Origin: a virus
Taxonomy: Duplodnaviria; Heunggongvirae; Uroviricota; Caudoviricetes
DNA length: 5,246 nucleotides
Virus record (IMG/VR): IMGVR_UViG_2529292908_000004
Strand: one strand, 5' to 3'
Shown piece by piece: positions 1 to 5,246 of the stretch. Both the position numbers and the translations under genes were made by a program. The notes beneath the pieces are model-generated. The model saw only the letters and a program-made list of their open reading frames with translations, did not search any database and was not told the DNA's origin. Position 1 is the first letter of the stretch. Each line of letters starts with the position of its first letter.

Positions 1-42
1 CGCACCGAAAATGTCAGCCAGCTGCTTTTTGTTGACTTCCAT
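1..42 (-). CDS. nohA: Terminase small subunit (Nu1 homologue), N-terminal 14 codons only; gene continues past the window start
   Basis: Minus-strand translation from ATG at 42-40 gives MEVNKKQLADIFGA, matching the N-terminus of lambda gpNu1 as I recall it. It lies immediately downstream of the cos site, as in lambda. Confidence 0.85.
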   Translation of the reverse strand, partial: MEVNKKQLADIFGA

Positions 43-290
43 TGTTCATTCCACGGACAAAAACAGAGAAAGGAAACGACAAAGGCCAAAAAGCCCGCTT
101 TCAGCACCTGTCGTTTCCTTTCTTTTCAGGGGGTATTTTAAATAAAAACATTAAGTTACGACGAAGAAGAACGGAAACACCTTAAACCGGAAAATTTTCA
201 TAAATAGCGAAAACCCGCGAGGTCGCCGCCCCGTAACCTGTCGGATCACCGGAAAGGACCCGTAAAGTGATAATGATTATCATCTACATA
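43..290. other. Lambda-type cos site: cosN with the 12-nt cohesive end at 220-231, cosB Nu1-binding repeats and an AT-rich IHF-like segment at about 60-180, cosQ-side flank at 232-290
   Basis: Minus strand of 220-231 reads GGGCGGCGACCT, followed by CGCGGGTTTTCGCTATTTATGAAAATTTTCC, which matches my memory of the lambda left end. Inverted GTCGTTTCCTTTCT-type repeats at about 64-82 and 108-124 and a CGTTTCCGTTCTTCTTC element at about 160-178 correspond to the R1/R2/R3 arrangement. The flank 232-250 reads as the lambda right end (GATCCGACAGGTTACG on the minus strand). Confidence 0.85.
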
Positions 291-430
291 TCACAACGTG
301 CGTGGAGGCCATCAAACCACGTCAAATAATCAATTATGACGCAGGTATCGTATTAATTGATCTGCATCAACTTAACGTAAAAACAACTTCAGACAATACA
401 AATCAGCGACACTGAATACGGGGCAACCTC

Positions 431-664
431 ATGTCAACGAAGAACAGAACCCGCAGAACAACAACCCGCAACATCCGCTTTCCTAACCAAATGATTGAAC
501 AAATTAACATCGCTCTTGAGCAAAAAGGGTCCGGGAATTTCTCAGCCTGGGTCATTGAAGCCTGCCGCCGGAGACTGTGCTCAGAAAAAAGAGTTTCTTC
601 TGAAGCAAACAAAGAAAAGAGTGACATTACTGAATTGCTCAGAAAACAGGTCAGACCAGATTGA
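431..664 (+). CDS. ynfO: Small YnfO/YlcI-like prophage protein, 77 aa; possible ribbon-helix-helix DNA-binding fold (inferred)
   Basis: 77-aa ORF in the position ynfO occupies in Qin (between the Nu1 gene and ydfO). The segment RNIRFPNQMIEQINIALEQKGSGNFSAWVIEACRRRL has a strand-helix-G-x-S-helix pattern typical of RHH proteins. No obvious Shine-Dalgarno before the ATG. Confidence 0.65.
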   Translation: MSTKNRTRRTTTRNIRFPNQMIEQINIALEQKGSGNFSAWVIEACRRRLCSEKRVSSEANKEKSDITELLRKQVRPD

Positions 665-721
665 AGCAATTTAGATAATCGTGCAGACTACGCCCCCTCA
701 TATCACATGGAAGGTTTATCT

Positions 722-1132
722 ATGGATCAGGTAGTCATTTTTAAACAAATATTTGATAAAGTTCGAAACGATTTAAACTATCAATGGTTTTATTCTGAGC
801 TAAAACGTCACAATGTCTCACATTACATTTACTATTTAGCCACAGAGAATGTTCATATTGTATTAAAAAATGATAATACAGTGTTATTAAAGGGCCTAAA
901 AAACATTGTGTCTGTCAAATTTTCAAAGGATAGGCATCTTATAGAAACGACCTCTAATAAGCTGAAATCCAGAGAGATCACATTTCAGGAATACAGAAGA
1001 AACCTTGCTAAAGCAGGAGTTTTTCGGTGGGTTACAAATATCCACGAACAAAAAAGATATTACTATACCTTTGATAATTCATTACTATTTACTGAAAGCA
1101 TCCAGAAAACTACACAGATCTTACCACGCTAA
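722..1132 (+). CDS. ydfO: YdfO/YbcV-family (DUF1398) prophage protein, 136 aa from the ATG at 722; alternative upstream ATG at 707 would give 141 aa
   Basis: Open frame 707-1132. GGAAGG at 709-714 sits 7 nt before the ATG at 722, so 722 is the better-supported start. Translation resembles the Qin YdfO / DLP12 YbcV family from memory. Confidence 0.75.
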
Positions 1133-1283
1133 ACCATAACGTCCGGCTTCTCTCACTCCTGAGCCGGACTGCATTGGTTTAATAAAAACCATCAACAATT
1201 GTGATTTAGATATTCGGAACCATTCAAATATAACAAAACCCCGTAAAAACGAGGTTTATGGATAAATTTTATTATTGAATACA

Positions 1284-1456
1284 TCAGATTAAATTAATCT
1301 TGACATCATAGCTTTCAAGACCCGTCATTTTTTCCCGTGCGGTAAACTGAATACTGGTAACTTCTTTCCCGGTCTTTTTCTTAAGTTCAATAATTTTTTT
1401 GTTATATATTCAGAAATATCTGCTTCTGCTTTTGTTTTTAAGTTTTCAATATTCAT
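1284..1456 (-). pseudogene. gnsB: gnsB-like gene (GnsA/GnsB family) interrupted by a -1 frameshift at an A7 run (plus-strand T7 at 1394-1400)
   Basis: From ATG at 1456 (GAGG 5 nt upstream) the minus strand reads MNIENLKTKAEADISEYITKK, then runs out of frame to a stop after 43 codons. The -1 frame from the A-run reads IIELKKKTGKEVTSIQFTAREKMTGLESYDVKINLI*, and the two parts together align to the 57-aa GnsA/GnsB family. The ORF track missed it because both pieces are short. Confidence 0.6.
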
Positions 1457-1627
1457 CATTTCCTCTTTTAGTCTGTTATGACTTTCCAGTTACACAGTAA
1501 GTCGATTATATGGTGCAAACGTGTAAAAGATAAGATGAAACATCGCAATAATCAACATACGATAGTCTAAATTTTACACAAACAGACAAAGAGAATTTTC
1601 CTGAATTATCAATGCAATAGCATCAAA

Positions 1628-1783
1628 TCAACTCAAGAGCCTTATTGCTGCTTCCAGAATTTCTTCTGAAGTAACATGTCGATCCGCGGCTACATAAATG
1701 ACTTTATGATCTCCGGTCAGAGATGGAAACCCTGCGGCCATTACAGTAAGGTGTGTTTTTTCGCCATTTGGATATTCACGCAT
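1628..1783 (-). CDS. ynfN: YnfN-like small protein, 51 aa from the ATG at 1783; in-frame alternative starts at 1804 (ATG) and 1819 (GTG)
   Basis: Open minus-strand frame 1628-1819. The 51-aa length and the position between gnsB and cspI match Qin ynfN as I remember it. GGAG lies 12 nt upstream of the 1783 ATG; start choice is uncertain. Confidence 0.55.
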   Translation of the reverse strand: MREYPNGEKTHLTVMAAGFPSLTGDHKVIYVAADRHVTSEEILEAAIRLLS

Positions 1784-1901
1784 GATGGTGTTAACTCCAG
1801 TCATCGCTGGCACTACCACTGCTGGTTCAGAGTTAAAAAAACTATGATTTTTTTCATGATGTTACCGTAGTATGTGAGTATCCATCGAATAGACACCAAG
1901 C

Positions 1902-1921
1902 AAAAAAGCTCCCGAAGGAGC
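1902..1921 (-). terminator. Rho-independent terminator on the minus strand: GCUCC-UUCG-GGAGC hairpin followed by U6
   Basis: Plus 1908-1921 is GCTCCcgaaGGAGC. On the minus strand this is a 5-bp GC stem with a UUCG tetraloop followed by TTTTTT (plus A6 at 1902-1907). It lies downstream of cspI and upstream of ynfN. Confidence 0.6.
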
Positions 1922-2128
1922 CTTCATTTTCACTTTTTTAAATCCAACGACAGACGGCTGGCATTTAAGTATTGTGAAATATTATCAAATGTAATCATCA
2001 TTGATTTACAAAAGATACATTTTGCCCCGAAAGGATTCATGTCAGAAACATCAAAAGATGATGTTCTATACTGGGAACCATGACAACACGGGCATCTAAA
2101 GTGAATATGGTTTGTAATATTGTCTACC

Positions 2129-2341
2129 TCAAAGCGCCACTACATGAACAGCGGCAGGACCTTTAGGTCCGTTCTCAATACCAAATTCAACTTCCTGATT
2201 CTCAGTTAATGTTTTGAAATCGTTGCTCTGAATTGCTGAGAAATGGACAAACACATCTTTGCTGCCATCTTTCGGCGTGATGAAACCAAAACCTTTTTCA
2301 GGGTTAAACCATTTCACTAAACCAGTCATTTTGTTAGACAT
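2129..2341 (-). CDS. cspI: Cold shock protein, CspA family, 70 aa
   Basis: Translation [70 protein letters not shown] carries the RNP1 (KGFGFI) and RNP2 (VFVHF) motifs and matches CspI from memory. AAGG lies upstream of the ATG as in cspA. Confidence 0.93.
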
Positions 2342-2492
2342 AATTATTACCTTTTGAAGAAATTAGCCCTTGGGCAGAATGGTCCGAAAAAAAATATCAG
2401 AGAGAAAAACCAACAAGGAAATCTCAAGAGGTACAAATAATAAAATTATAACAATGACTGCTTCAGATAAATTTGTAACAAACCAGAACACC

Positions 2493-2521
2493 ATTAACGC
2501 ATGATTAACCACCCATAGCAA
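2493..2521 (-). promoter_or_regulatory. Candidate cspI promoter: -35 TTGCTA (2521-2516), 17-bp spacer, -10 GTTAAT (2498-2493), with an AT-rich upstream region
   Basis: The hexamers resemble the cspA promoter (TTGCAT / CTTAAT). The predicted start near 2486 gives a leader of about 145 nt, typical of cold-shock csp genes. Minus strand 2522-2580 is AT-rich, like an UP element. This is sequence pattern only. Confidence 0.35.
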
Positions 2522-2703
2522 GGATTACTTTTGTAAAGAAAAACACAGCAATGAAAGAATAGCTTTATTTATTAATAAAACGTGTCATTCTGATTAAGAC
2601 CTTTTATCTTACCCTTAAGATTTCAGGAATTTTGGCTCATGGAAGAGTCCTTTTTATTTAAATTTTACATTCCGCGATGTAAATGTTCCGATTTAATATT
2701 ACC

Positions 2704-3727
<1,024 letters not shown>

Positions 3728-3731
<4 letters not shown>

Positions 3732-4039
3732 AGATATTTATGATGAGGACGCTCGTGCTTATTGGCAGGATTTTCAATCTTAAAGGAGTACTGATGCTGC
3801 AGATAAGACTCAACTTTTTCTGACAATTTTTCTGCTACTTCCAGGAAGACTTGCCGGACGCTCCTTCTGGCTGCTGCCTCATAAAACTCCAGCGCAGCTC
3901 CTTCAACACGGTCCATGGCGACATCCAGGTCAAAAATTTCACCGTCAAAGCGTTCTTTGTCCTGTAAGGCTACAGTTACCGTAACTTTATTCTCAAAATT
4001 ACGGACTCCTTTCACAACCAGTTCATAGTCTTGAGTCAT
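3728..4039 (-). CDS. ydfR: YdfR-family (DUF1327) protein, 103 aa, located between the holin and endolysin genes
   Basis: 103-aa ORF with no transmembrane segment; matches Qin YdfR in length and position from memory. Starts 4 nt after the essQ stop and overlaps the rrrQ start in ATGA. Confidence 0.85.
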
Positions 4040-4043
4040 TGGA

Positions 4044-4259
4044 TTACTCTCCTCTCGCAGCCTTACGCCTGTCTTCTTTAATCTTGAAATAAAGATTTGT
4101 CAGATACGTCAGCAGGCCAAAAACCAGGCTACCCAGCACACCGATTGCAGCCCACTGTGACGGAGTTACTTTATCGAGTAACTGCAATGCCCAGAAACCA
4201 GCATTACCCGCCGATGTGCCATAGGCAACACCTGTTGTTAACTTATCCATTGATTTCAT
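4044..4259 (-). CDS. essQ: Pinholin (phage 21 S-type class II holin), 71 aa, with a dual-start motif (Met1 at 4259, Met4 at 4250)
   Basis: Translation [71 protein letters not shown] has two transmembrane segments and a charged C-terminus, closely resembling S21. The further N-terminal extension in the ORF track (to 4334) is not supported. Confidence 0.9.
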
Positions 4260-4478
4260 ATCCTCACCCCGATGTACACGGATGGTGCAATATGTTTGAA
4301 AAGATCGGAGTCTACGGGGTAGTTTTGACAGCACACGTTGTTCTCAACGGCGCTAAAAAAACATACACATTAAAAATGTGGGTAATTATTTTGAAAGAAA
4401 GTCATATATAAAATAATAATACGAGAAATGTTTTCATATTTAGTGTACTGTATACGGCCATTTATACAGGAAAAGCCT

Positions 4479-4649
4479 ATGTCAGAACGTAAAAACTCAA
4501 AATCACGCCGTAATTATCTCGTTAAATGTTCCTGCCCAAACTGCACCCAAGAGTCAGAACACAGTTTTTCAAGAGTACAAAAAGGTGCCCTTTTGATCTG
4601 CCCTCATTGCAACAAAGTATTCCAGACAAATCTTAAAGCTGTAGCCTGA
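4479..4649 (+). CDS. Small zinc-ribbon protein, 56 aa, with two Cys pairs (CSCPNC ... CPHC), divergent from the holin; possibly YnfU-like
   Basis: ATG at 4479 is preceded by AGGA 7-8 nt upstream. The basic N-terminus (MSERKNSKSRRN) followed by CxCxxC-x19-CxxC is a zinc-ribbon arrangement. The upstream in-frame ATG at 4428 lacks a Shine-Dalgarno. The YnfU identification is from memory and is uncertain. Confidence 0.6.
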   Translation: MSERKNSKSRRNYLVKCSCPNCTQESEHSFSRVQKGALLICPHCNKVFQTNLKAVA

Positions 4650-4705
4650 TTGATTTTATTAGTAACAAGTATTTTTTATATTTTAATAATATATTTAAAG
4701 CAGAT

Positions 4706-4731
4706 AATAAAAAACCCGCCTGAGCGGGTTT
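4706..4731. terminator. Hairpin terminator AAACCCGC-CTGA-GCGGGTTT: strong in the minus direction (followed by T6), weaker in the plus direction (T3)
   Basis: Perfect inverted repeat at 4712-4719 / 4724-4731. On the minus strand the GC stem is followed by TTTTTTATTATCTG. It could end the plus-strand zinc-ribbon gene and/or act as a tR'-like terminator for minus-strand transcripts entering the lysis cassette. Confidence 0.55.
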
Positions 4732-4956
4732 GAGATTGTGGTGCTTTTTGTGGGAGTCATCCACTTACGCACTTTGTTTTGCCATGCCAGCAGTTAGCTT
4801 CTGCTGTAAAACTATTCATGCAGCAAACCTGCACTTCACCACAATGGTTAGCATACTTTTCCTGATTAAGATTTTGCCAAATATGCTAGCCATTGTTTCA
4901 TGTATTGGACCTCCTTACTTTTTATTAAAGAGATCCAATATTCACTACTCTGTCCG

Positions 4957-5246
4957 GGTGATGCTGCCAACTTACTGATTTAGTGTATGATGGTGTTTTT
5001 GAGGTGCTCCAGTGGCTTCTGTTTCTATCAGCTGTCCCTCCTGTTCAGCTACTGACGGGGTGGTGCGTAACGGCAAAAGCACCGCCGGACATCAGCGCTA
5101 TCTCTGCTCTCACTGCCGTAAAACATGGCAACTGCAGTTCACTTACACCGCTTCTCAACCCGGTACGCACCAGAAAATCATTGATATGGCCATGAATGGC
5201 GTTGGATGCCGGGCAACTGCCCGCATTATGGGCGTTGGCCTCAACA
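4957..5246 (+). mobile_element. IS1 insertion sequence, left end (first 290 bp of about 768 bp); continues past the window end
   Basis: Starts at 4957 with the IS1 terminal inverted repeat GGTGATGCTGCCAACTTACTGATTTAGTGTATGATGG, followed by insA in the expected position and frame. Confidence 0.93.
5012..5246 (+). CDS. insA: IS1 InsA (transposition repressor / N-terminal part of the InsAB' transposase); GTG start, truncated by the window end
   Basis: From GTG at 5012 (GAGG 5 nt upstream) the frame reads (M)[77 protein letters not shown], which matches IS1 InsA. The track ORF at 4983-5195 is in a different frame and is spurious. Confidence 0.9.

Follow-up and report, generated by a model that had tools for sequence, protein, structure and literature searches.

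The window analysed here, a stretch of 5,246 nucleotides from a Caudoviricetes record (IMG/VR IMGVR_UViG_2529292908_000004), very probably holds the left part of an IS1A element inserted in an AT-rich, non-coding spacer of the Qin prophage, in an Escherichia coli strain close to ML35 and K-12, as judged from sequence identity and position. The element cuts no protein gene. On comparison with uninterrupted relatives, the original prediction that IS1 interrupts the antiterminator gene Q or the late promoter pR' is refuted. IS1 lies instead within the path that leads from pR' to the holin, 1.1–1.2 kb downstream of Q and pR'. What adjoins the far side of the element is close to evenly balanced between an ordinary insertion and a rearrangement, with a slight lean to the former.

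Qin prophage context

Positions 1–4956 of the window form a single collinear match to the cryptic lambdoid prophage Qin, with 99.96% identity to ML35 and 99.84% to K-12, in an alignment that spans nohA' to the spacer downstream of cspB. Gene order agrees along with sequence. RefSeq mapping and Pfam place the nohA 5' end first, followed by ynfO, ydfO, gnsB, ynfN, ynfR, ymcF, cspI and rzpQ; after rzpQ/rzoQ come rrrQ, ydfR, the holin gene, ynfU, a hairpin at 4712–4731, 225 bp of unannotated DNA and IS1. The features that bear on the insertion, up to its edge, are as follows.

2704–3201, minus strand: rzpQ, an Rz-type spanin with DUF2514 (Pfam DUF2514, 7.7e-39)
3198–3731, minus strand: rrrQ, endolysin (phage lysozyme), intact (Pfam Phage_lysozyme, 1e-23)
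3728–4039, minus strand: ydfR (DUF1327), intact (Pfam DUF1327, 1.1e-53)
4044–4259, minus strand: essQ, class II holin of 71 aa (PGAP label essD), intact and equal to that of K-12 (Pfam Phage_holin_2_1, 4.4e-34)
4479–4649, plus strand: ynfU, zinc-binding small protein of 56 aa (Pfam YnfU, 3.5e-31; RefSeq annotation of K-12 and ML35)
4712–4731, minus strand: intrinsic terminator-like hairpin, AAACCCGCTCAGGCGGGTTT plus TTTATTATCT (terminator scans)
4732–4956, minus strand: remaining 3' part of a non-coding structured stretch after cspB (K-12 alignment and RNA folding; no annotation)
4948–4956: 9 bp of target DNA adjoining the IS1 end, CTCTGTCCG, the expected target-site duplication of a simple insertion

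The lysis genes in the window are identical to those of K-12. Another ORF, at about 2754–3008, is embedded in rzpQ as an Rz1-type frame, which we take to be rzoQ, as in K-12. The holin–endolysin–spanin cassette is unbroken, in line with the earlier statement that the lysis genes are otherwise intact. ynfU is oriented convergently with the region downstream of cspB. The window departs from K-12 Qin by a 1-bp deletion in gnsB and by seven substitutions in its first 180 bp, and from K-12 and about 1,600 other genomes by the presence of IS1 at this site.

Two 1-bp homopolymer deletions are the sole differences between the window and ML35. One lies in gnsB (minus strand, about 1284–1456), where position 1394 falls in a run of T7 rather than the T8 of ML35 and K-12; the frame shifts after codon 21 and is cut to 43 residues. 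Either gnsB is a true pseudogene here, or the length of the run was misread in sequencing. The other lies in ynfN (minus strand) at 1835, with A7 as against A8 in ML35, and the frameshifted allele is the RefSeq pseudogene of K-12. The seven substitutions relative to K-12 crowd into positions 1–180, covering the nohA 5' end and the DNA upstream of it, whereas the remaining 4.8 kb beyond position 180 are identical to K-12 save for one indel. This clustering suggests a recombination boundary near nohA. An Rfam cspA thermoregulator was also detected at 2102–2487 on the minus strand (112.8 bits, gathering score 78), where it extends over cspI together with the 5' leader of that gene; in K-12, the copy at cspB matches the same model with 158.8 bits.

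IS1A at the right end of the window

The IS1 portion comprises four features.

4957–5246, plus strand: left 290 bp of IS1A, running off the window end (identity to the IS1A of strain B18271)
4957–4979: IRL, 23 bp, GGTGATGCTGCCAACTTACTGAT, equal to the start of full-length IS1
4964–4991, plus strand: promoter-like site CTGCCA-16-TATGAT, partly within IRL (consensus scan)
5012–5246, plus strand: first 78 codons of insA, with a GTG start at IS1 nt 56, running off the window

Positions 4957–5246 match the first 290 bp of the annotated IS1A of B18271 (L002, 4886–5175) with 100% identity over 290 bp (E 1e-154). Full-length IS1 is 768 bp long, and IS1 matches number in the thousands in E. coli genomes. 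Homology to Qin breaks exactly at 4956|4957 and the first base of IRL is position 4957. The breakpoint is unambiguous in the alignment, since the window reads ...CTCTGTCCG|GGTGATG where K-12 reads ...CTCTGTCCG|TATCTC. IRL and the right end of IS1, GGTAATGACTCCAACTTATTGAT, are imperfect inverted copies of one another. The insA frame from 5012 bears the N-terminal zinc ribbon (Pfam Zn_ribbon_InsA, PF03811, 1.2e-21) and helix-turn-helix (HTH_Tnp_IS1, PF12759, 9.2e-23) that characterize the IS1 family. Its match to the NCBIfam model transpos_IS1 (NF033558, 8.2e-22) stays under the full-length cut-off because only 78 residues of the protein are present. Together, the identity over 290 bp, the terminal repeat and the InsA domains confirm, far above chance, that an IS1 end begins at 4957. 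The 9 bp to its left at 4948–4956, singled out earlier as a possible duplication, are confirmed as CTCTGTCCG.

The element agrees with IS1A of Escherichia coli and Shigella in its 23-bp IRL and in the position of insA at nt 56, and its visible 290 bp show no difference from it. IS1-family elements also contain an insB' frame, joined to insA by a −1 programmed frameshift to yield the InsAB' transposase, and a right inverted repeat (IRR); here insB', the frameshift site and IRR lie beyond the window. The promoter-like site at 4964–4991 is presumably the IS1 insA promoter, given its position. Both insA and its promoter region face away from the lysis genes. No outward hybrid promoter directed from IRL toward the holin was found, as inspection by eye gave no acceptable −10 element at the right spacing and the promoter scan gave none.

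Insertion in a non-coding spacer downstream of cspB

The junction corresponds to 6307|6308 of the K-12 locus (L001), where cspB occupies 6364–6579 on the minus strand; IS1 is therefore 56 bp beyond the stop codon of cspB. There are no RefSeq features at the insertion site in about 1,600 genomes, and no tRNA was found in the region. In uninterrupted K-12 the three minus-strand frames over the site are open for 6, 31 and 15 codons from stop to stop. Two such frames had been read as the 3' end of an interrupted gene. They exist, ending at 4925 and 4866, and are open for just 15 and 31 codons without the element. In uninterrupted genomes they hit stop codons 5 and 16 nt past the junction; they are not the end of an interrupted gene. 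Frames over the insertion site had no family match in Pfam-style or NCBIfam searches. The target interval has a G+C content of 33–39%, as would suit IS1, which is known to favour AT-rich targets.

A 99-codon open stretch on the plus strand at this site was considered as a gene and rejected on thin data. It has no Pfam-style or NCBIfam match, PGAP annotates nothing there, and one RAST-style phage annotation calls it "hypothetical". Between variants it has accumulated 4 synonymous versus 7–10 non-synonymous codon changes and thus gives no sign of purifying selection. The stretch runs antisense to a strongly structured region, described below, which IS1 cuts inside its first hairpin, 56 nt after the cspB stop.

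Position of Q and the late promoter

In K-12 and ML35 the antiterminator gene quuQ (ydfT) lies at 7514–8266 of L001 on the minus strand, 1.2 kb past the insertion point; the intervening DNA contains cspB and, in the opposite orientation, cspF. By homology the quuQ product is a true Q of the lambda type (Pfam Antiterm, 3.6e-54; Q-lambda chain of PDB 7ubm, 4.6e-36; PHROG 127, 2.9e-105). Right after the quuQ stop codon is a promoter-like TTTGCA-18-TAAAAT at 7483–7454, followed about 45 nt later by a GC-rich hairpin, AAAACCCGCTGATGAGCGGGTTTT, with a T-rich tail at 7408–7385 (flagged by the terminator scan on the plus strand only). As consensus matches, the promoter-like site and the hairpin would form the expected pR'–tR' layout.

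The window itself has no Q homologue or fragment in its ORF list or by Pfam. The lambdoid late-control module is neither contained in the window nor interrupted by IS1, and in relatives it occupies 7385–8266 of L001. The original prediction nonetheless measured the local geometry well, with about 700 bp to the holin and about 225 bp to the hairpin (the measured values are 698 bp, to the holin start at 4259, and 226 bp, to 4712–4731). It was also right that IS1 lies upstream of the lysis cassette, between the cassette and the Q/pR' of IS-free relatives; the error was to place it at the Q/pR' site itself. The hairpin at 4712–4731, taken earlier for tR', is located 1.3 kb downstream of the Qin pR'-like promoter and closes off the structured stretch 3' of cspB; the tR'-like hairpin is a different one, found after the promoter beside quuQ.

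It is thus extremely improbable that IS1 interrupts the Q gene or the late promoter, that the minus-strand frames represent the 3' end of that gene, and that the lysis genes are silent for this reason. Such a reading would fit the location of IS1 upstream of the holin on the coding strand and the lack of any Q gene in the window. However, comparison with the IS-free prophages of K-12 and ML35 reveals that the junction DNA is non-coding spacer, that the frames over it close within a few codons and match no family, and that quuQ with its promoter and hairpin is found 1.1–1.2 kb further on, behind cspB and cspF. The same distance applies in the phages 2H10 and PhiR42_1.

The order Q–cspF–cspB–spacer–holin also recurs in two phage records, PhiR42_1 and 2H10, the latter classified by ICTV as a Glaedevirus. 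Of these two, only PhiR42_1 has ynfU annotated between spacer and holin. In HannyBb the gap from Q to cspB is longer still. Four complete phage records (PhiR42_1, HannyBb, 2H10 and PhiR63_1; L013–L016) carry the Qin late region at 95–100% identity, with cspF, cspB and cspI present. The occurrence of a Qin-like late region in phage records implies that the cold-shock morons and the long gap between Q and holin are native to a living phage lineage. Q and the holin therefore lie 1.9 kb apart as an inherited property of that lineage, and the distance is no mark of decay.

A predicted structured RNA region downstream of cspB

The roughly 310 nt from the cspB stop to the terminator at 4712–4731 have a predicted folding energy of −105.2 kcal/mol, compared with −72.8 ± 5.1 kcal/mol for shuffled sequences (z = −6.4). 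This structured region corresponds to window positions 4700–4956 on the minus strand and to 6050–6366 of L001 in K-12, with a core at about 4712–4852, and its first hairpin spans the IS1 insertion point. The last ~140 nt, together with the terminator, recur at 75–82% identity outside this lineage, in the unrelated phages PHB10 and Cyrano and in about 90 E. coli plasmids, phage-plasmids among them. The PHB10 copy lies downstream of a cspB homologue, and the plasmid copies are next to dnaE. In an alignment of six sequences of the 140-nt element, seven predicted pairs have changed on both sides with pairing kept, and indels break every reading frame. At gathering score Rfam offers no family for the region downstream of cspB, only the cspA thermoregulator upstream of cspB and cspI; at a relaxed E-value the matches are sub-threshold (Trp_leader, 21.7 bits; isrK, 18.3 bits). 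These observations, from three lineages only, are suggestive of a candidate small RNA or 3'UTR element.

An 11-codon ORF, MKQWLAYLAKS, is present within this region at 4866–4901 on the minus strand, behind a near-perfect Shine–Dalgarno sequence (AAGGAGG, 4910–4916) that is buried in the second hairpin, a predicted 14-bp stem. The 2H10 variant reads MKQWPAYLAIT; the peptide sequence differs, while length and Shine–Dalgarno sequence are kept.

A speculative and rather unlikely reading is that the DNA hit by IS1 belongs to a conserved structured RNA module, so far unannotated, located after cspB. If so, a small RNA or 3'UTR element carried by the phage would be cut off by IS1 from cspB and from the Q-dependent late transcript, and would itself survive intact in the window at about 4712–4852 on the minus strand.

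Simple insertion, rearrangement or artefact

The window stops at IS1 nt 290, so that the right end of the element and the second copy of any target duplication lie outside it. A simple insertion would have a right junction consisting of IRR followed by CTCTGTCCG and TATCTCTACTCAGG..., and likewise of IRR followed by CTCTGTCCGTATCTCTAC... and then cspB. In a megablast search of 5,426 complete E. coli genomes the exact IS1 junction was not recovered; every full-length junction match consisted of two pieces 190–450 bp apart, representing IS1 at other nearby sites. Neither the exact 42-nt junction pattern nor the predicted right junction with an 8- or 9-bp duplication was found among GTDB species representatives and metagenome contigs. 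The IS1 junction was also absent from the plasmid collection, the products of five junction-spanning ORFs had no exact match in the protein collection, and literature searches on quuQ and Qin yielded no mention of this IS1 insertion.

Absence of the junction from every public collection searched would be expected if the contig had been misjoined to, or had ended in, a repeated IS1 and the real genome had no IS1 here. The termination of the window within IS1 points the same way, and the two single-base homopolymer differences from ML35 may be a sign of reads or an assembly of modest quality. Such an artefact is nevertheless very unlikely. The switch occurs exactly at base 1 of the IS1 terminal repeat, as transposition gives and a random mis-join rarely would, the 290 bp of IS1 exceed usual graph overlaps, and IS1 insertions are common in the essQ–quuQ interval of finished genomes.

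Ten other independent IS1 events between essQ and quuQ were characterized in complete E. coli genomes (loci L002 and L004–L012; K-12-equivalent interval L001 5762–7247), each at a different position and none at K-12 6307|6308. Half of them are simple insertions with 8–9 bp duplications (L004, L005, L007, L010 and L012). Two of the five are within a gene (cspB or ynfU), one lies at the start of cspF, and two fall in the tR'–cspF and essQ–ynfU gaps. These involve the same element, the same prophage and the same 1.9-kb AT-rich interval as the window, and include CEA106S (between tR' and cspF), EC06 (inside cspB), F3_13_1_3 (inside ynfU) and cS76a (between essQ and ynfU). In the other five, which lack a duplication, a deletion or an inversion has removed or displaced Q, and Qin now adjoins distant DNA. 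Its new neighbour is manD (L002), flxA (L006), rspB (L008 and L011) or an inverted hokD–ydfU segment (L009). Across the ten loci, IS3 copies break the holin or endolysin in three strains.

With the window, the 1.9-kb interval has received at least 11 IS1 events in about 1,640 genomes, compared with ~6 expected under a crude uniform model based on a median of 10 IS1 places per genome. As this count is little above the uniform expectation, we do not claim the essQ–quuQ interval as an IS1 hotspot.

We lean slightly toward a simple insertion rather than a rearrangement. The alternative is somewhat less probable yet deserves serious weight: neighbouring DNA would have been deleted or inverted through IS1, so that cspB, cspF, quuQ and perhaps all of the early region were lost or moved elsewhere. 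Five of the ten other events took that form, whereas the remaining five are simple with target duplications, and the window itself favours neither state. If the rearrangement were true, the lysis cassette would be left without Q and pR' and would be effectively dead.

Expected effect on late transcription

In an uninterrupted prophage, minus-strand late transcription would begin at the pR'-like promoter just after quuQ and meet the tR'-like hairpin. The transcript would next cross cspF in antisense, then cspB, the spacer and the terminator at 4712–4731, and would pass ynfU, again in antisense, before entering the holin, ydfR, endolysin and spanin genes. Without Q, transcripts from pR' would be expected to end at tR', and read-through from cspB or from IS1 would meet the strong hairpin at 4712–4731. 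Since these terminators would stop Q-less read-through, the lysis genes should be insulated with or without IS1, and the element would change little.

Q-modified polymerase is described as termination-resistant and as suppressing polarity in the passage of PMC12360218 that cites Forbes & Herskowitz (1982). On that description, a simple 0.8-kb insertion should leave Q-dependent lysis expression in place. The cassette would lose Q and pR' only if IS1 had also deleted or inverted the DNA beyond it. Silencing of the lysis genes would thus follow in the rearranged case only, because Q is removed or displaced there.

IS1 splits the structured region 3' of cspB and parts the gene from the terminator at 4712–4731, and the 3' processing of cspB mRNA could change through this separation.

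Known counterparts and meaning

DLP12 of K-12 carries an IS5 in nmpC, between quuD (Q) and the essD–rrrD–rzpD lysis genes. The window resembles DLP12 in having an IS between the Q gene and the intact lysis cassette of a defective lambdoid prophage. It differs in that the element belongs to another IS family and its target is non-coding, whereas nmpC is interrupted in DLP12. More generally, cryptic prophages are well known to acquire insertion sequences and to undergo IS-mediated deletions (discussed in general terms in PMC6379469). IS1A and Qin are each known; the insertion site is unrecorded in the collections searched, and the kind of event is familiar.

The expectation that Q and pR' directly adjoin the holin should be corrected for the Qin-like lineage, in which about 1.9 kb of moron DNA (cspF, cspB, the structured spacer and ynfU) parts Q from the holin, phage records included. 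The IS1 allele in the window is an ordinary strain-specific insertion that can serve as a strain marker. Taken with the ten other IS1 events, half of them deletions or an inversion, it shows the piecemeal erosion of the region between Q and holin in Qin.
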